This document shows, piece after piece, positions 188 to 7,941 of a DNA stretch of 47,232 nucleotides. This stretch comes from Chthonomonadaceae bacterium (GTDB lineage Bacteria > Armatimonadota > Chthonomonadetes > Chthonomonadales > Chthonomonadaceae): NCBI GenBank assembly GCA_035650735.1, contig DASRGZ010000082.1, positions 1-47,232 of the forward strand, read 5' to 3'. How positions within the stretch are numbered: the first letter of the stretch is position 1; every line of letters begins with the position of its first letter. The translations under genes and the position numbers were made by a program. The notes under the pieces were generated by a model. The model was not told where the DNA came from and ran no database searches. It saw only the letters and a list, made by a program, of their open reading frames with translations.

Positions 188-553
188 CTAGGCCGCCCGC
201 AGTCGCAGGAACCAGGGATGACGGCGAATTTCCGCCGTCTCGGTAAATTGCACCCCGTACTCAAAGAGCGCCTGTTCTGCTCCCTCGATCAGTTGCTGGC
301 GCATGATCCGCGCGCGTATCGGAGGCAGTTCGCTGTCGTTCGGGGCATACAACAGTACGTAGCTCCCACACGGAAGGCATACCTCCGCGCGAAACCGCAG
401 GCCCCTGCGGCTGATATCCTGAAGGATGCCCATGTGCTTGCCGCACTCGGAATGCTCAATTCCAATCGGTTGCGCTTTGGCCGGCAGGCGCAGCGCCGAC
501 CGGCGATCATCGGGGGCGATAACCGGCTCGAACGATGTGTCCACGCGCGTCAT
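188..553 (-). CDS. Single-domain PilZ protein (predicted c-di-GMP receptor)
   Basis: RxxxR motif (DRRSALR), D-x-S-x-x-G motif (DISRRG) and C-terminal YGVQF strand. Start placed at ATG 553 after AGAGAGGAA; the ORF extends to ATG 604. Confidence 0.85.
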   Translation of the reverse strand: MTRVDTSFEPVIAPDDRRSALRLPAKAQPIGIEHSECGKHMGILQDISRRGLRFRAEVCLPCGSYVLLYAPNDSELPPIRARIMRQQLIEGAEQALFEYGVQFTETAEIRRHPWFLRLRAA

Positions 554-923
554 TTCCTCTCTTCTGAACGGAAGGATCCTTGTAATAGGCTTCACCTTCC
601 GCATTATCGGCAGCCTGCCCGGCAGGATTAGGGGAGGGCTGCCCAGCCATCCTACCGGTTTGCAGGGGCCGAGCGGGTGTTCCGTGCCCGGCTTTGGCCT
701 CTTATTTCCCGCTTCTTATGACTACTGACCACTGAGCACGGACGTTCTGCGCTCGACTCTGGCCCTTTCTTCTCCGCTGCCTCTGCCGGCAGCCCGTATG
801 GGTTCCTCCGAGTTGTCCCGCTCTCCAGCGCTAACATCGCTCTTCTTTCCGGCTGCGGCTGGAGACCCGCATGACCTCTGCCGCAGTTCTAGCACTTCCT
901 ACAGCCAGCTTTCTCTTCCCGAA

Positions 924-932
924 TGGCATAAT
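924..932 (+). promoter_or_regulatory. Putative extended -10 promoter element for the riboswitch leader
   Basis: TGgCATAAT about 20 nt upstream of riboswitch 1; no clear -35. Confidence 0.4.
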
Positions 933-952
933 CCCTCTTGGTGGGCTAACTC

Positions 953-1046
953 CGCCCCCGACAAGGGCAAACCTGCCGTAAGGCAGGGACGCAAAGCCGA
1001 CGGGTCTCCGCTGATAAGCCGAGACGGCCGGGCCGCCGAACGGGCG
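953..1046 (+). ncRNA. c-di-GMP-I (GEMM) riboswitch, copy 1
   Basis: GGCAAA-CCTGCC-GTAA-GGCAGG-GACGCAAAGCC...GGCCGCCGAA. GNRA-capped P2; P1 formed by CGCCC/GGGCG. Confidence 0.92.
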
Positions 1047-1056
1047 ATCACCACAG

Positions 1057-1096
1057 AGATAGATACATTCTGGTTGGATGCCTCTATCTATATTTT
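1057..1096 (+). terminator. Possible weak intrinsic terminator between the tandem riboswitches
   Basis: AGATAGA-ta-CATTC-tggtt-GGATG-cc-TCTATCT hairpin followed by ATATTTT. Confidence 0.35.
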
Positions 1097-1189
1097 CCGC
1101 GTCGGGCAGGAGCCACCTCAGGGATAGTCTCCTATTCTCCAGCGCAAGCCAGAGGATAGGAGGCTGCCCGCACCACCAGCAGTTCCTTC

Positions 1190-1294
1190 GCAATCGAAAA
1201 CGGCAAACCTGGCGAAAGCCAGGGACGCAAAGCCACGGACCTACCCTGGCTTGCCTGTAGGGCAAGCAGTATGGCCGCCGGGCTGCCGAATTGC
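1190..1294 (+). ncRNA. c-di-GMP-I (GEMM) riboswitch, copy 2
   Basis: GGCAAA-CCTGGC-GAAA-GCCAGG-GACGCAAAGCC...GGCTGCCGAA; P1 GCAAT/ATTGC. Ends ~10 nt before the SD AAGGAG (1304-1309). Confidence 0.93.
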
Positions 1295-1316
1295 AGGATT
1301 ACGAAGGAGAGAAGAT

Positions 1317-3074
1317 ATGGTTGCTTTCAGTAAAAAATGCTGCTTGCAGCCCAAAAAGGTCCGGTTGGGTCTCCGCCAACGCGCAGGCCGGCGCCTCTCA
1401 GGACTCCTGATGGCCGCGCTGGCCGGCTGCCTGCTCACAGGCAGCCAATGGCCTGTCCGAGCGAAGGATGCTATCAGTGCAAAATGCGATGGCTTTCTTC
1501 AGGAGAAGCTCGCTAATCGGAAGCCCAGCGATTGGGTCTCCGCCATTGTCCGTGTCAATGGAACAGGGCAGGCCGCCCTGGAACAAGAGCTTAAATCGCT
1601 GGGCGGAAGCGTCTATTGTCGCCTGCCGTTGATTAACTCCGTCGCCGTGCGCGTACCGATCAACCGCCTGGCGCATCTGACCAACATGGCCTTCGTGGAC
1701 CATCTGTCCGAAGATACGCAGGTAACGAAACGCGACGAATTCACCGTTGGCTCCAGCGGGGCCGATGTGGCTTTCCAGCAGTACGGCCTGACCGGCTCCG
1801 GCGTGAGCGTGGCCGTGCTGGATACGGGCGTCAAAGACGCCACCGATCTCGATGACGCCAGCGGCAACAGCCGCATCGCCGCCAACGTCAGCTTCGTGCC
1901 CAGCACGACCTCGGCCGATGACGGCAACGGGCATGGCACCCATGTGGCCGGCATTATCGCCGGTAACGGCGCCGCCTCCACCGGCAGCGCCTTTTACCGA
2001 ACGTTCTACGGTATCGCCCGGCAAACCCGGATCGTCAACGTCCGGGTGCTGGATGCCAACGGCCAGGGCGACGTCAGCTCGGTCATCGCCGGCATTCAGT
2101 GGGTTGTGGATAACAGGGCAAGGTACAACATCCGGGTGATCAACCTGTCGCTGGGCCATCCTGTGGGCGAAAGCTATACGACGGACCCACTCTGCCAGGC
2201 CGTCGAGCAAGCCTGGAAGGCCGGTATCGTCGTCGTCTGCGCTGCCGGCAACGAAGGCCGACTCAACGACACGGCCACCCAGGGAGCGGACAACGAGGGC
2301 TACGGCACGGCCTACGGCTCGATCAACTCACCGGGCAACGACCCCTATGTGATCACCGTCGGGGCCATGAAGTCGGTGGATGGGATTCGCGCTAACGATA
2401 CCATCGCTACCTACTCCAGCCGGGGGCCCTCCCTGGTCGACTTTGTGCTCAAGCCCGATATTGTGGCGCCCGGCAATAAGGTCGTCTCGCTTGAAGCGCC
2501 TAGCAGCACACTGGTCAACGCCTACCCGGCCAACTGCCTGAAGTGGGCGGATTATAAAGTCCGAGGCAATACCAGCTACTCGTCCAAGTACTTCGTCCTG
2601 TCGGGCACCTCGATGGCGACGCCGGTCGTCTCGGGAGCCGCCGCCCTGCTGTTGCAGAAGGATCCGACGCTTTCTCCGGACACGGTGAAGGCCCGCCTGA
2701 TGGTTTCCGCCGATAAGTGGAGCTTCCCAGACGGCACCTATGATGCCTGCACCTTTGGCGCCGGTTACCTGAATATTCCGGCGGCCCTCAACTGCACGGT
2801 CACGGCCACGCAGTCGGCCCTGAGTCCGTCCCTCTACCAGGATGCGCAGGGCAACGTGCTGATCGACAATGCGATCTGGGGCAATAACGCCATCTGGGGA
2901 TCCGGCATTACCGACCTGCGCGCTATCTGGGGAAGTAATGCGATCTGGGGCAAAGACATGCTCTCTTCCAGCAATGCGATCTGGGGAAAGAGCGTCTGGA
3001 CCGACCGGGCCATCTGGGGAAGCAGCACCAGTCAAATAGACGGGTTAGCCGTAACCGTTCAAGGGGATAACTGA
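1317..3074 (+). CDS. Secreted S8 (subtilisin-like) serine peptidase with propeptide and C-terminal AIWG repeats (paralog 1)
   Basis: Catalytic motifs VAVLDTG, HGTHVAG and GTSMATP; oxyanion AAGN; signal peptide ending PVRA; six AIWG repeats. ATG 1317 lies 7 nt after AAGGAG; the listed 1251 start falls inside the riboswitch. Confidence 0.93.
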   Translation: MVAFSKKCCLQPKKVRLGLRQRAGRRLSGLLMAALAGCLLTGSQWPVRAKDAISAKCDGFLQEKLANRKPSDWVSAIVRVNGTGQAALEQELKSLGGSVYCRLPLINSVAVRVPINRLAHLTNMAFVDHLSEDTQVTKRDEFTVGSSGADVAFQQYGLTGSGVSVAVLDTGVKDATDLDDASGNSRIAANVSFVPSTTSADDGNGHGTHVAGIIAGNGAASTGSAFYRTFYGIARQTRIVNVRVLDANGQGDVSSVIAGIQWVVDNRARYNIRVINLSLGHPVGESYTTDPLCQAVEQAWKAGIVVVCAAGNEGRLNDTATQGADNEGYGTAYGSINSPGNDPYVITVGAMKSVDGIRANDTIATYSSRGPSLVDFVLKPDIVAPGNKVVSLEAPSSTLVNAYPANCLKWADYKVRGNTSYSSKYFVLSGTSMATPVVSGAAALLLQKDPTLSPDTVKARLMVSADKWSFPDGTYDACTFGAGYLNIPAALNCTVTATQSALSPSLYQDAQGNVLIDNAIWGNNAIWGSGITDLRAIWGSNAIWGKDMLSSSNAIWGKSVWTDRAIWGSSTSQIDGLAVTVQGDN

Positions 3075-3075
3075 G

Positions 3076-3098
3076 AGGGGCCGCTTCGAGCCCCCCTT
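3076..3098 (+). terminator. GC hairpin after protease 1
   Basis: GGGGC-cgcttcga-GCCCC stem-loop directly after the stop codon; poor U-tract. Confidence 0.3.
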
Positions 3099-3182
3099 AA
3101 GCATCGCCTTTGGCACGGTTCTCCACGCAGAAGACCTTTACTAAGCGTAGAGCGAACACATTTCACGCGACGATTTACGGAT

Positions 3183-3276
3183 GCTCCCGAAACGGCAAAC
3201 TGTCCGAAAGGGCGGGACGCAAAGCTAGAGGGCCTTCCCTCCGCTAAGGAGGATGGCAGCCTGGCCACCGAAGAGC
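3183..3276 (+). ncRNA. c-di-GMP-I (GEMM) riboswitch, copy 3
   Basis: GGCAAA-CTGTCC-GAAA-GGGCGG-GACGCAAAGCT...GGCCACCGAA; P1 GCTC/GAGC. Ends 27 nt upstream of ATG 3304. Confidence 0.9.
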
Positions 3277-3303
3277 TTCTTGAGATACTGAGAGCATCCA
3301 ACC

Positions 3304-5073
3304 ATGACGACACAAACTCGCGGCAAAAAGAATACGAAAGTTTTCAAGCAGTTCTCGCTGCTATCCACCCTGAGTCTGATGGGCCTGTTGCTGACCGGCG
3401 TGCGTCTGCCGGCCCGCGCAGATGCCTTCGCAGATAAGAGCGACAAGTTCCTCAAAAACAAGCTGGCTACGCTGCCGGCTGCCAATTATGTCTCTGCCAT
3501 CGTTCAGGTGAAGGGCGACTTCACCGATACGTATAACACCCAGTTCCAACTGATCGGCGCCTCGGTCTACCAGCGCCTGCCGCTTGTCCATGCGGTGGCG
3601 TTACGGGTGCCGGTCAGCGCCCTGAAGCTCCTGGCCAGCCTGTCGTTTGTCACCCGTGTCTCGGAAGATGTCCCGGTACAGAAACATGACGAGTTTACCG
3701 TCGCTTCCAGTGGCGCCGATACGGCTTTCCAGCAGTACGGCCTGAACGGTACCGGCGTTACCGTCGCAGTCGTGGATAGCGGCATTCGCTCGCATCCCGA
3801 CCTGAACACTTCCACGAGCGGAGGCTCGCGCGTTCTGGCCAGCACCAGCTTTGTCAACGATGGCTACGGTGCCGACGACCCCTGCGGCCACGGCACCCAT
3901 GTCGCCGGCATCGTCGCGGGCAACGGCCAGGCTTCTTCTGGAGGGAACTGCTACCGCACGTTCTATGGCATCGCCCGCAACACCAATCTCGTCAATGTTC
4001 GGGTGCTGGATGCTAACGGCCAGGCCAGCGTCAGCACGGTCATCTCCGGCATCCAGTGGGTGATTAACAACAAGGCCACATACAACATCCGGGTGATGAA
4101 CCTGTCGCTGGGCCATCCTGTGGGCGAGAGCTATACCACCGACCCGCTCTGTCAGGCCGTGGAGAGCGCCTGGAAAGCCGGCATTGTCGTCGTCTGCGCC
4201 GCCGGCAACAATGGCCGGCTCAACGCCTCGGCCACCCAGGGATCGGATAACGAGGGCTATGGCACCAACTACGGCTCCATCGTCTCGCCGGGCAACGACC
4301 CCTATGTGATCACCGTGGGGGCTATGAAATCGGTAGATGGCGTGCGCGCCCATGATACGATCTCGACCTACTCTGGACGCGGGCCTACGCTGGGCGACAT
4401 TGTTCTTAAGCCGGATATCGTGGCGCCGGGCAACAAAATCATCTCGATGCGCTGCCCGAACACCTATGTGGATGTCACTTACGCCAACACGAACCTGATC
4501 CCGTTGAACTACTATAAGACGGTGGCCTCGACCTCCGACTCGCCGCAGTACTTCCGGCTCTCGGGCACTTCGATGGCCGCTCCGGTCGTCTCCGGCGCCG
4601 CCGCTCTGATGCTGCAGAAGGATCCGACGCTTTCCCCGGACACGGTGAAGGCCCGCCTGATGGTCTCCGCCGATAAGTGGGGCTTTTCCAACGGGCTTTA
4701 CGATCCCTGCACCTTCGGGGCCGGATACCTCAACATCCCGGCGGCCCTCAACTGCACCGTCACGGCTACGCAGCCGGCGTTGAGCCCGACCCTGGTCTCC
4801 GATGGCGCGGGCAATATCTGCCTCAATAACGTAATCTGGGGCACCAACGTCATCTGGGGAACCGGCATCAACAATCTCAATGTTATCTGGGGCACCAATG
4901 TTATCTGGGGTACCAATATCATCTGGGGAACCAACGTGATCTGGGGCACCAATGTCATTTGGGGCACGAACGTTATCTGGGGAACCAACGTGATCTGGGG
5001 CACCAATATCATCTGGGGCACAGGCGGCAATGGCACTGATCTGTCCATGGCCAGCATCTTCGGAGACGACTGA
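3304..5073 (+). CDS. Secreted S8 serine peptidase with C-terminal (TNVIWG)n repeats (paralog 2)
   Basis: VAVVDSG, HGTHVAG and GTSMAAP motifs; signal peptide ending PARA; ten IWG repeats; colinear with paralog 1. Confidence 0.95.
   Translation: MTTQTRGKKNTKVFKQFSLLSTLSLMGLLLTGVRLPARADAFADKSDKFLKNKLATLPAANYVSAIVQVKGDFTDTYNTQFQLIGASVYQRLPLVHAVALRVPVSALKLLASLSFVTRVSEDVPVQKHDEFTVASSGADTAFQQYGLNGTGVTVAVVDSGIRSHPDLNTSTSGGSRVLASTSFVNDGYGADDPCGHGTHVAGIVAGNGQASSGGNCYRTFYGIARNTNLVNVRVLDANGQASVSTVISGIQWVINNKATYNIRVMNLSLGHPVGESYTTDPLCQAVESAWKAGIVVVCAAGNNGRLNASATQGSDNEGYGTNYGSIVSPGNDPYVITVGAMKSVDGVRAHDTISTYSGRGPTLGDIVLKPDIVAPGNKIISMRCPNTYVDVTYANTNLIPLNYYKTVASTSDSPQYFRLSGTSMAAPVVSGAAALMLQKDPTLSPDTVKARLMVSADKWGFSNGLYDPCTFGAGYLNIPAALNCTVTATQPALSPTLVSDGAGNICLNNVIWGTNVIWGTGINNLNVIWGTNVIWGTNIIWGTNVIWGTNVIWGTNVIWGTNVIWGTNIIWGTGGNGTDLSMASIFGDD
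4828..5019 (+). repeat. 18-bp coding tandem repeat encoding TN(V/I)IWG
   Basis: Ten IWG units. Codons vary synonymously (GTA/GTC/GTT/GTG; GGC/GGA/GGT) while the amino acids are conserved. Confidence 0.95.
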
Positions 5074-5131
5074 TCGGATGTGAGGATGCCGCGCGGAACA
5101 GCACGCGCGGGATGCTGAGACGGAAACTAAT

Positions 5132-5161
5132 CAGGGCGTGGGGCAATTGCCCCACGCCCTG
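5132..5161. terminator. Perfect 13-bp stem hairpin between convergent protease 2 and tRNA; likely terminator
   Basis: CAGGGCGTGGGGC-aatt-GCCCCACGCCCTG followed by TTCCTTT. Confidence 0.7.
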
Positions 5162-5269: not shown

Positions 5270-5340
5270 CTGGGGGACGTGGATTCGAACCACGGTTAAC
5301 GGCTCCAAAGACCGCTGTCCTGCCACTGGACGATCCCCCA
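5270..5340 (-). tRNA. tRNA-Gln (anticodon TTG), CCA not encoded
   Basis: Minus strand reads TGGGGGA-TC-GTCC-AGTGGCA-GGAC-A-GCGGT-CTTTGGA-GCCGT-TAAC-CGTGG-TTCGAAT-CCACG-TCCCCCA-G: a full cloverleaf with the T1-A72 pair typical of Gln. Confidence 0.96.
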
Positions 5341-5399: not shown

Positions 5400-5734
5400 G
5401 CCGAGCGGAAAACCCCGGCCTATCCCCTCTGCGATGCCCTTCCAGGCCAGGACTGCTTCTTCGGCAGGCTTGTCCCCAGACAAAAAAAGAGACCGCAGAG
5501 GCCCTCGTTCGCTCTGCGGTCCCATAGTGTGGAAAGGAAGCACCACCGCAGTGAATCCTCACTTACAGCAGAACCTCACAATATCGTTATACGATATTTT
5601 GGCCGATTTTGGGGCTCGTCAGGCTACGGGATTTCCTACCCCTACCGAAAACTCCAGGGCCAATCACCAGGAAATCCCTATTCAGGCGTTAACGCAGGGT
5701 CCTTCCGTTTTCCCTGCGGCTCTCACCCTAGAAG

Positions 5735-5772
5735 ACCTCACCCCCGGCCCTTCTCCCTCTAAGGGTGAAGGG
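5735..5772. repeat. Short copy of the palindromic repeat family
   Basis: ACCTCACCCCCGGCCCTTCTCCCT-cta-AGGGTGAAGGG, the same module as 30-60. Confidence 0.6.
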
Positions 5773-5807
5773 AGACGAAAAGCCGAAGTTAAAGAGAGGA
5801 TAACGGC

Positions 5808-7022
5808 TCAGCGGACGACTTTGGGGGCCTTTGAGCGGCGCTGGCTTTTCAGGCTCTTAATGATCTCGCGCAGGTCGTCCCGGCGCGCGACGGCGCGCGG
5901 GTACTTATTCGGATCGAAGGGCTGGTAGAGAAGCGCGCCGGCAGGAATCGCGAAGGCAAACTCCTGCGGGCCGAAGGCCGGATGCGCCACGATGAGGTTA
6001 TCGTAGGTGATGCGCGTCTTGACCGGCAGGATGGAATCCGAGAGAGTATCGCTATCGTCGGCGGCAGGCAGACCGCCCGGCCCTGGCAGTTTGGGCGTGG
6101 GCGGCTCGGCGGGCAGGGGGGCGTCGTCCAGCAGTTCATCCAGCGGGTCGCCGATTTTGCCGGGTGTGTTGTAGGTCAGGATCGGCGTGGTTTCAGTGAC
6201 GAGGCGGCGCAGCAGGAGGTCCTGTTTGCCGATATAGAGACGGGTTTCCGTGACCGAGCCCGGCGCGGCGATCCGCAGCGCTACTACCTCGGTCGGCACG
6301 CCGCGCACCTCTTCCTCGCCCTCGTAGCGGGCGCTGTCCACCTTGCTTTGCAGATCGGCAAAGGGGTTCAGGCCCAGGATCATGAGCAGTTCCAGGCTGC
6401 CGCTGTTGAGATTGGGCAGCCGCAGAAAGTCGCGCAGCTGCCCCGGCGCCTTCTCCTTCGTGTAGGCGTTTTTCTCCTCGCTATACGTCCAGAACGTCTT
6501 GCCGTCGCTCACCCATTGCGTGATCATTGGCTTGCGGGTTGTCGGGTCCACCTGGCGCAGCTCCAGCAGCAGACGGTTGGGCCTCTGGACAAGCAGGCGC
6601 AGGCGCCGTGGGTCTTCCTGAGTTTTGGTCGCCGGGAGCGCAGCCGCCGTCCCTTTTGCCTCGGACGCGGCGTTTCCCCCTGTCGGGGCGGCGGGCGGCG
6701 CCTTCCCCCCCGGCGGAGGCGGCGGCGTAACCGGCGTGATGGAAGAGGTGAAGACCGTCTCCTGGCTGAGCGCGGGCAGATGGGCATAGGTGTCCGCCAT
6801 CTGCTGTAGCAATTGCAGTGCGCGCGGCTCAAAGTCGGGGCGCGTGCCGGACGGCGCTCCTTGTTCCTCCGCCGAGGCCGCCCACGCGCCCTGCCCCATC
6901 AGCCCAACGGCGATCCAGAGGGCGAGAAGGCCTTTTGAGAACGCCTTCGCTGGCCTGCGCGTATTTTGCGACAGCGCGCCTGCCAAGCGGCGCTGCGCGG
7001 CAATGACATGCCTGGCTATCAT
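5808..7022 (-). CDS. Exported LolA-like / DUF2092-like protein with Pro-rich inserts
   Basis: Signal-like hydrophobic stretch ending AWA; QRPNRL..., VSDGKTFWTY..KNAY and C-terminal FAFAIPAGA motifs of LolA-fold proteins. Start moved to ATG 7022 (GAGG SD) to avoid overlapping the upstream gene. Confidence 0.7.
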   Translation of the reverse strand: MIARHVIAAQRRLAGALSQNTRRPAKAFSKGLLALWIAVGLMGQGAWAASAEEQGAPSGTRPDFEPRALQLLQQMADTYAHLPALSQETVFTSSITPVTPPPPPGGKAPPAAPTGGNAASEAKGTAAALPATKTQEDPRRLRLLVQRPNRLLLELRQVDPTTRKPMITQWVSDGKTFWTYSEEKNAYTKEKAPGQLRDFLRLPNLNSGSLELLMILGLNPFADLQSKVDSARYEGEEEVRGVPTEVVALRIAAPGSVTETRLYIGKQDLLLRRLVTETTPILTYNTPGKIGDPLDELLDDAPLPAEPPTPKLPGPGGLPAADDSDTLSDSILPVKTRITYDNLIVAHPAFGPQEFAFAIPAGALLYQPFDPNKYPRAVARRDDLREIIKSLKSQRRSKAPKVVR

Positions 7023-7086
7023 TCTGAAGTTCCTCGGCAATGGAAAGCGGGATGCGGGCGGGGCAGGCAAGCGGGCCGGGGCGAGA

Positions 7087-7941
7087 TCACTTCGCCTGCG
7101 GCGCGGCACCTGTCTCCCTGGCATCGGCGGGCGGCGTGAAGGCAAAATCGGCGTCCGTCAGGCGCGGATTCGCCTCCACCTGGGTATATTCGACCTCGAC
7201 CGTTGCCTTCTCCTCCGCCTCTAAAAACGGGCTAACCGTGCCGGGATCGGGAAGAATGCGCAGCGTAAAGCCGCGCAGCAGGTTACTTTCGGGATCGAGA
7301 CGGTAGCGCAGCGTGCGCCGTGCGCCCTCCTGCTGCGCCTCTACCTGCAATACGTTCACGGCCTCCTGCGCCTGCTGCTCGAACCCGGCTGTATAGTGGA
7401 CGGGGGCGGTCTTCTCCAGAGCCGCAAACGGATCGGCGTCCCGCAGCAACAGGTCGAACTCCGGGCCGCGCAGCGAGCCCGCCAGGATCAGCTTGTCCAG
7501 CTTCACGGGCGCTTTGATCCGCTGGAACGTATGACGCGCGCTGTTGTAGAAGGTCAGCGTCTTGCCGTCGCAGGCCCAGGTCAGATGCCAGCGGCCCGGC
7601 TGCGCTATCTGCGGATAGTCCACCTGAAGATAAAGACGGTTCGGCTTCTGGAAACGAAATTCGATTTCGATGACGGAAGCCTGATCGGGCGCGGATTTCC
7701 ATTGGCGCTGTATGACGTGGGCCCGATAGGAGCGCAAACTGCGGTACGCCCGCACCATCTTCTCGCGCAGCGCCATCGCCGCCGGTTCCCGAGCAATAGC
7801 CGAAGGGCTGCCCGGCGTGCCGGGCGACGCCTGCGCACCGCTAGGAGAGACGGCCCAGGCCAGCCAACAGCCCGCCAGCAGCAGCCACATAGCACGAAGG
7901 CGTAGGGGTAAGACAGGGCGGTGAGAAACGAGCAGTGCCAT
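7087..7941 (-). CDS. Exported LolA-like / DUF2092-like protein
   Basis: Signal peptide; FQKPNRL, CDGKTLTFYN and terminal DADFAFTPPADA motifs. Confidence 0.75.
   Translation of the reverse strand: MALLVSHRPVLPLRLRAMWLLLAGCWLAWAVSPSGAQASPGTPGSPSAIAREPAAMALREKMVRAYRSLRSYRAHVIQRQWKSAPDQASVIEIEFRFQKPNRLYLQVDYPQIAQPGRWHLTWACDGKTLTFYNSARHTFQRIKAPVKLDKLILAGSLRGPEFDLLLRDADPFAALEKTAPVHYTAGFEQQAQEAVNVLQVEAQQEGARRTLRYRLDPESNLLRGFTLRILPDPGTVSPFLEAEEKATVEVEYTQVEANPRLTDADFAFTPPADARETGAAPQAK

Follow-up and report, generated by a model that had tools for sequence, protein, structure and literature searches.

The question raised by positions 188–5161 of a 47,232-nucleotide stretch of DNA from a Chthonomonadaceae bacterium (contig DASRGZ010000082.1, phylum Armatimonadota; the whole stretch is referred to as the window) is why two predicted secreted subtilases of the S8 family, each with a tail of Trp-Gly repeats, are encoded behind riboswitches for cyclic di-guanosine monophosphate (c-di-GMP), next to a gene for a PilZ protein. 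A computational analysis of the locus, of its genome and of related loci points to an answer in which the tail is probably a signal-hexapeptide polyprotein, read by a MASE9-like membrane sensor and with riboswitch feedback, the proteases likely being the sending half of a peptide–c-di-GMP loop.

The tail of protease 1 contains six units (four NAIWG and two RAIWG), and that of protease 2 contains ten (eight NVIWGT and two NIIWGT). Homologues were compared at three slots parted by conserved, non-repetitive spacers; 55 of the 120 sequences allowed such scoring. The tripeptide preceding WG was identical in 65% of the comparisons between slots within a gene and in 10% of those between genes. Between genes, identity was 9.9% for the same slot and 9.9% for different slots, so that the slot position carries no information on the unit. 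All three slots were identical in 30 of the 55 genes, against a mean of 1.0 and a maximum of 6 in shuffles, and in a metagenome set of 81 genes unit identity was 49% within and 5% between genes. Unit identity belongs to the gene, not to the position. As judged from their codons, the copies in the window are not recent DNA duplicates, because the number of shared codons does not exceed what codon usage would give (50 of 112 where 63 are expected, and 14 of 24 where 15 are). One protein, P0128, consists of a leader and a tail with no catalytic domain; its genomic locus was searched for and not found.

The strongest new evidence for the signal-hexapeptide reading is a set of stand-alone genes. 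In 0.93 Mb of protease loci, eight small open reading frames (ORFs) encode a hydrophobic leader and end in one unit followed by the stop codon. Seven end in SAVWGS, in genes of about 43 residues, and one in RVIWGN; the latter lies downstream of a gene for a protease whose units are RAIWG, in a genome of the same family. In five aligned SAVWGS loci the stop is kept and the last codons vary mainly at third positions; the leaders of the SAVWGS genes are variable and their last seven residues invariant. As a separate observation, a small ORF directly after a protease at L124:5660-5935 encodes a hydrophobic leader followed by NVVWGS twice, with basic residues on the flanks of these units.

The recurrent neighbour of the proteases in relatives encodes a membrane protein with HD-GYP, GAF and GGDEF domains, often with the full HD-GYP-GAF-GGDEF arrangement. 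A sample of 151 genomes of the phylum was examined, of which 33 carry the protease family (83 genes) and 118 do not. The sensor was present in 33 of the 33 genomes with the protease and in 17 of the 118 without, and it lay within 6 kb of 31 of the 83 protease genes, against 0.47 expected. Five families of mixed presence gave equal counts for sensor and protease. Among 41 relatives, all 14 sensor-bearing genomes hold a protease, and 12 of 18 sensors are within 3 kb of one. Of 77 metagenome loci, 50 hold a sensor in the vicinity of the protease (24 of 30 among loci of at least 7 kb), and in five acidobacterial genomes 4 of the 15 protease genes have one next to them (compared by eye); within the 4-kb flanks of the distant loci L080-L097 it was found in none. 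Unit similarity tracks the neighbouring sensor and not the catalytic domain of the same protein, with a partial rho of 0.56–0.62 (24 pairs, or 18 after removal of 6 near kin). Separately, the order pre-peptide (SAVWGS-stop), protease and stand-alone MASE9-like protein of about 250 residues without output domain was noted at L129, L134, L137, L164 and L186.

The sensor copy of the window's genome is at C152:26790-29345, on a contig other than that of the window, and has intact HD, GYP, GGDEF and RxxD motifs. Its GHQKGD sequence has Asp at the Hypr position as mapped in this analysis; the rule for Asp rather than Ser/Thr at this position is taken from PMC6456294. The sensor domain is called MASE9-like because it is missed by the PF20972 (MASE9) model. 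A 51%-identical orthologue passes the model (24.7, with a cut-off of 24.3), and PF20972 was matched by 23 of 31 aligned sensor homologues at E 0.01; no match was found among solved structures with the sensor profile. By Galperin and Chou (bioRxiv 10.1101/2021.11.05.467447), MASE9 is presented as a promiscuous sensor, the ligand of which is probably bound in the membrane, and its periplasmic segments are reported to be short and poorly conserved. A complex prediction with the C152 sensor domain and 30 residues of the protease 2 tail scored 0.01 with controls not folded, and carries no weight for or against the pairing.

Before the protease genes, the preliminary description of this DNA had listed three GEMM riboswitches. 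They are borne out by Rfam covariance models, three of three being above the gathering cut-off: RF03167 for the aptamers at 957–1041 and 1193–1291 (65.8 and 73.0 bits, cut-off 59) and RF01051 for that at 3184–3272 (66.9 bits, cut-off 35), a model whose cut-off is also passed by all three. The assignment of one aptamer to each protease stood for protease 2; protease 1 has a tandem of two. The position discriminating c-di-GMP from cyclic GMP-AMP (cGAMP), position 20, was placed on these aptamers through the Rfam pairing and the Vc2 numbering. It is a G in all three (GGC before AAAC), and G versus A at this position separates c-di-GMP from cGAMP aptamers according to PMC6140456; cGAMP specificity of the window's aptamers was rejected on this G. 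Elsewhere, gene-proximal aptamers with A at position 20, possibly of the cGAMP type, were noticed at L074:1958, L075:3780, L077:3690, L098 and L099, those of L074 and L077 sitting behind a G20 aptamer; the G135 aptamers have C at this position.

The association of aptamer and protease extends well beyond the window. In the phylum sample, an aptamer stands before 22 of the 83 family genes (9 of them with a tandem), against 0.05 expected, and 31 of the 81 aptamers in the 33 protease genomes precede a family gene. Among the 41 relatives, an aptamer lies no more than 800 nt upstream of 13 of the 30 protease genes that have their 5′ end on the contig, 5 of the 13 being tandem, and 18 of 60 aptamers stand before a family gene. 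The window's genome has five close protease paralogues and eight aptamers, five of which precede three of the paralogues. The association of upstream GEMM motifs with WG-tailed S8 genes that had been put forward for checking was found in both samples. In the metagenome loci, which are mostly more distant, a regular-expression scan detected the aptamer core in just 2 of 77, so that the riboswitch layer looks lineage-restricted.

The gene-proximal aptamers 2 and 3 are predicted to be translational ON switches. In aptamer 2, the 5′ strand UCCUUCG can either pair with the Shine-Dalgarno (SD) strand CGAAGGA or join a short closing stem. An equivalent alternative pairing in other letters, GGAUGCUC with GAGCAUCC, exists at aptamer 3, and the anti-SD/SD complementarity is kept in homologues. 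The prediction relies on folding calculations in which the closing stem (P1) was forced: SD accessibility increased in 17 of 17 leaders, in one by merely 0.02, and went from 0.21 to 0.44 and from 0.13 to 0.73 in the leaders of the window. The energy cost of forcing the stem was 2.6–9.7 kcal/mol. A hairpin following aptamer 1 forms in the unconstrained fold, with a weak U tract. The GGCATAAT box at 925–932 is found again ahead of the first aptamer, at much the same spacing, in C220, C191, L011, L038, L077 and L100. As none was seen before aptamer 3, the two proteases may share one transcript ending at the 5132–5161 hairpin.

The leader of aptamer 1 is 80% identical over 234 nt to that of a REC-HD-GYP gene on contig C191. 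Promoter and leader are reused there, at G000:C191:31592-31822 (L034), and the GCCGATAA box then follows. An aptamer-2-like riboswitch at G000:C62:312 (L035:388-3285) precedes the gene of a 965-residue β-propeller/Ig-repeat protein.

Both proteases match PF00082 (E-values of 4e-54 and 2e-53), are 64% identical over 549 residues, and have the Asp-His-Ser triad, oxyanion Asn and prodomain of S8 enzymes. The triad residues, D169/H206/S432 in one and D158/H196/S423 in the other, do not vary in alignments of 119 and 108 sequences. With tails of 6 and 10 units, these proteins are indeed the paralogous WG-tailed pair that had been proposed. Signal peptides were judged by eye from a basic n-region, a hydrophobic stretch and a VRA or ARA site, and an N-terminal helix is present in the models. 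The closest homologues are named as Chthonomonadaceae, and homologues bear the JGI name 'serine protease AprX'. Fold searches with the whole models returned the pro-subtilase fold (Foldseek E 1.8e-36; Z 44 and root-mean-square deviation 2.0–2.4 with PDB 3afg and 9ues), the matches concerning the prodomain and catalytic fold and not the tail. A fifth paralogue, G000:C15:19344-21062 (L033), lacks a riboswitch; its tail is degenerate and its catalytic Ser motif reads GTSL.

The PilZ ORF (188–553) matches PF07238 with 29.2 bits (cut-off 22.5). Its motifs RSALR (RxxxR) and DISRRG (DxSxxG), recognized as intact from the outset, are kept in 10 of 10 orthologues examined. Translation likely starts at the ATG at 553 and not at 604, because the latter overlaps the −10 box of the promoter, which was assigned with the σ28 consensus. 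An orthologue is found in 16 of the 41 relatives, 8 of which are without the protease family. It is beside a protease in 3 of the 16, the window's genome included, in an arrangement that differs in each, and near a MASE9-like sensor in three genomes. Across 28 genomes from other families there are 50 PilZ matches and 73 protease genes, and comparison by eye put no match near any such gene. PilZ as a general partner of the protease was rejected on the 3 of 16 and 0 of 50 counts. The pilZ–protease link within the order exceeds chance, yet it is not defining, and PilZ is an accessory, patchily linked member. Of the PilZ neighbourhood looked for at WG-tailed S8 genes, the excess over chance within the order is therefore retained and the extension to other families is not. 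Nor is the locus the self-contained c-di-GMP output of the preliminary description: the conserved sensor is on another contig (C152), and pilZ has its own predicted σ28-type promoter in addition to its patchy linkage. Apart from this, the flgM gene (PF04316) at G000:C191:35015-35491 (L034) is preceded by a c-di-GMP-I riboswitch, with a similar leader in L023; this riboswitch could link c-di-GMP to σ28, and so indirectly to the pilZ promoter of the window.

The features of the locus are listed in Table 1. Its G+C content is 0.59–0.62, slightly below that of the flank. NCBIfam gave nothing above cut-off, and a plasmid search gave only generic S8 proteins, hence no sign of a mobile cassette. On the far side of the hairpin are tRNA-Gln(TTG) at 5270–5340 (− strand), convergent with the proteases, and an adjacent pair of DUF2092 (LolA-like) genes at 5808–7941 (− strand). 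A dispersed repeat at 1–190 and 5700–5790, with matches on 143 contigs, is present at the other end of the contig too and probably breaks the assembly.

Table 1. Positions of the features of the riboswitch-protease locus in the window
Feature	Positions	Strand	Evidence
Stand-alone PilZ protein, 121 aa, RxxxR and DxSxxG	188–553	−	PF07238, orthologue motifs, linkage counts
Predicted σ28-type promoter of pilZ, TAAT-N15-GCCGATAA	604–630	−	GCCGATAA present before 4 of 12 orthologues
GGCATAAT box, conserved; probably the −10 element for the riboswitch-protease transcript	925–932	+	Recurrence before first aptamers
c-di-GMP-I aptamer 1, upstream tandem member	957–1041	+	RF03167, 65.8 bits
Aptamer 2 (1193–1291), anti-SD strand 1184–1190, SD strand 1302–1308	1184–1316	+	Predicted translational ON switch
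S8 protease 1 of 585 aa with a predicted signal peptide, a prodomain, the complete triad and the tail	1317–3074	+	
Protease 1 tail, six [N/R]AIWGx units	2868–3023	+	
Aptamer 3 (3184–3272), anti-SD strand 3179–3186, SD-overlapping strand 3292–3299	3179–3303	+	Predicted translational ON switch
S8 protease 2, 589 aa	3304–5073	+	64% identity with protease 1
Protease 2 tail, ten N[V/I]IWGT units, divergent synonymous codons	4828–5022	+	
Hairpin of 13 bp between the proteases and the convergent tRNA-Gln, probably a terminator for both directions	5132–5161	.	

The following mechanism is proposed. c-di-GMP-I aptamers precede protease genes across the phylum, and ligand binding is predicted to free the SD sequence, so that translation would rise with c-di-GMP. 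The product would be exported by the Sec pathway, after which the prodomain would be autoprocessed. The tail may then be cut into xxxWGx hexapeptides, which would be NVIWGT and [N/R]AIWGx for the proteases of the window. These would bind to the MASE9-like domain of the C152 HD-GYP-GAF-GGDEF protein and change c-di-GMP turnover through HD-GYP or GGDEF. PilZ would be a separately transcribed, σ28-driven accessory reader that may once have been part of the cluster in some Chthonomonadales.

Several points weigh against this reading. The sampled kin are not independent, and the co-occurrence and linkage counts given above therefore overstate significance. The gain in SD accessibility in the 17 leaders arises partly by construction, since the forced helix competes with SD pairing. 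In 37 of 51 genes the copies have more codons in common than expected from codon usage, so that slippage or conversion explains part of the unit homogeneity. A profile search for stand-alone peptides gave 430 proteins, the best 120 of which all end in ASAVWGx (Terriglobales where named), a uniformity that is partly built in because the motif seeds the search. The 6.5 Mb of the window's genome gave 12 chance-like small-ORF matches, none ending in its own unit, and the SAVWGS genes mostly flank proteases of another commonest unit (SVVWG, SVIWG or SIVWG). As for the sensor, the C152 domain does not match PF20972, and in the window's genome the gene is unlinked to the proteases. Within the close clade, the unit–sensor correlation weakens to 0.20–0.32 and the prodomain control is higher (0.60–0.64); a cruder unit call gave a unit–sensor correlation of 0.39. 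Finally, in the models of both proteases the first tail units pack against the enzyme, with a predicted local distance difference test (pLDDT) score of 65–85.

Such ordered first units would suit a tail that stays attached, or is released whole, and serves the MASE9-like sensor as a docking arm or multivalent ligand, with no free hexapeptide. All the protease–sensor linkage data are accommodated by this explanation, a DLSxxAIxG[DE]-type C-terminus is kept in 102 of 120 homologues, and a processing motif between tandem units is not evident. It is nevertheless rather unlikely, as the genes that end in one unit and a stop indicate that one short unit is enough. The existence of these single-unit genes, together with the co-occurrence of the sensor in 33 of 33 genomes, also argues against proteases that are c-di-GMP-induced surface or matrix enzymes, with a structural Trp-Gly tail (a solenoid, amyloid-like or a surface anchor) and the sensor as a co-regulated neighbour. 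Surface or matrix proteases, or protease-fused structural proteins, had been the effectors imagined at first, and this is now the weaker reading, no solenoid being predicted and the same unit type ending tiny signal-peptide genes. The other riboswitch targets of the genome, the 965-residue β-propeller/Ig protein and FlgM, are typical sessile-state genes and speak for it, as do the commonest unit spacing of 6 (235 intervals) and the Hexapep found in 16% of the members of one Atlas look-alike cluster. The spacings of 5, 11 and 12 are also frequent, the slots carry no unit information (9.9% versus 9.9%), and neither of the two AlphaFold2 models, of proteases 1 and 2, shows a solenoid. The pure hexamer array of protease 2 has a pLDDT below 50 in its model, which is compatible with assembly. 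On balance a structural tail is unlikely.

The protease–sensor linkage would also result if the protease cleaved the sensor or its partner, with the tail and the small peptides inhibiting or timing the protease; hydrophobic Trp peptides could conceivably fill a subtilase active site. This appears quite improbable, since in the full set the similarity of units follows the sensor more closely than it follows the catalytic domain, and since the periplasmic segments of the sensor are reported in bioRxiv 10.1101/2021.11.05.467447 to be short and poorly conserved.

Should the hexapeptide reading be correct, it would provide a ligand class for an orphan family of membrane sensors and, for c-di-GMP enzymes, an input from outside the cell, a gap of long standing, as well as a cell–cell signalling system for the poorly studied soil phyla Armatimonadota and Acidobacteriota. 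Testing the claim would be inexpensive: hexapeptides are named as candidate ligands, and a laboratory strain suffices to read the sensor's output. A broader proposal is put forward tentatively, at somewhat under even odds: a widespread, undescribed peptide signalling in which a self-processing subtilase carries pherotype-specific Trp-Gly hexapeptides for orphan MASE9-type receptors, with a riboswitch autoinduction loop in Armatimonadota, amounting to quorum-like sensing into c-di-GMP. All parts are known families and their wiring was not found in print. No description of the protease–sensor pairing was found in the literature, where subscription journals were thinly covered and the supplements of the MASE9 paper could show gene neighbourhoods.

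Among known systems, MASE9-HD-GYP-GAF-GGDEF proteins as described in bioRxiv 10.1101/2021.11.05.467447 have the same domain architecture as the partner gene. Their ligand is proposed there to be intramembrane, and the main text names no ligand or protease neighbour ('peptidase', 0 occurrences). Tandem c-di-GMP-I riboswitches are known, for example before Bacillota transglutaminase-like genes (PMC12452182), the likeness being that a predicted protease-like gene has tandem aptamers upstream. The main text of that paper makes no mention of targets in Armatimonadota or of peptidase targets (0 occurrences), and control is predicted to be translational in the window. AprX and Tk-SP-like subtilases (PF00082; PDB 3afg and 9ues) share the prodomain and catalytic fold; the xxxWGx tail of the window's proteases has no Pfam match and is not described for them.

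By analogy, the system may be likened most to Bacillus Phr or to the repeat pheromones cut by Kex2. Phr proteins are short Sec-exported pre-peptides with paralogue-specific sequences, in which the signal consists of the C-terminal 5–6 residues and extracellular subtilases carry out the maturation. Putative small exported pre-peptides with a C-terminal unit are encoded in relatives and were not found in the window's genome. In the latter the protease itself carries the units as a tandem fusion, the output would be c-di-GMP and a riboswitch would gate synthesis. The likeness to Phr fails at the receptor, which is a cytoplasmic Rap/RRNPP TPR protein in those systems and a membrane MASE9-like domain in the present proposal. 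No gene for a cytoplasmic TPR receptor is present in 188–5161, and the recurrent neighbour in relatives is the membrane sensor; a TPR/BTAD gene precedes one protease paralogue only (C161). The yeast α-factor is a secreted polyprotein from which several short peptide copies are released by the subtilase-family Kex2. The proteases of the window resemble it in combining several short peptide copies with a subtilase-family enzyme, and differ in that enzyme and repeats are in one protein, with the units in tandem and without dibasic spacers.

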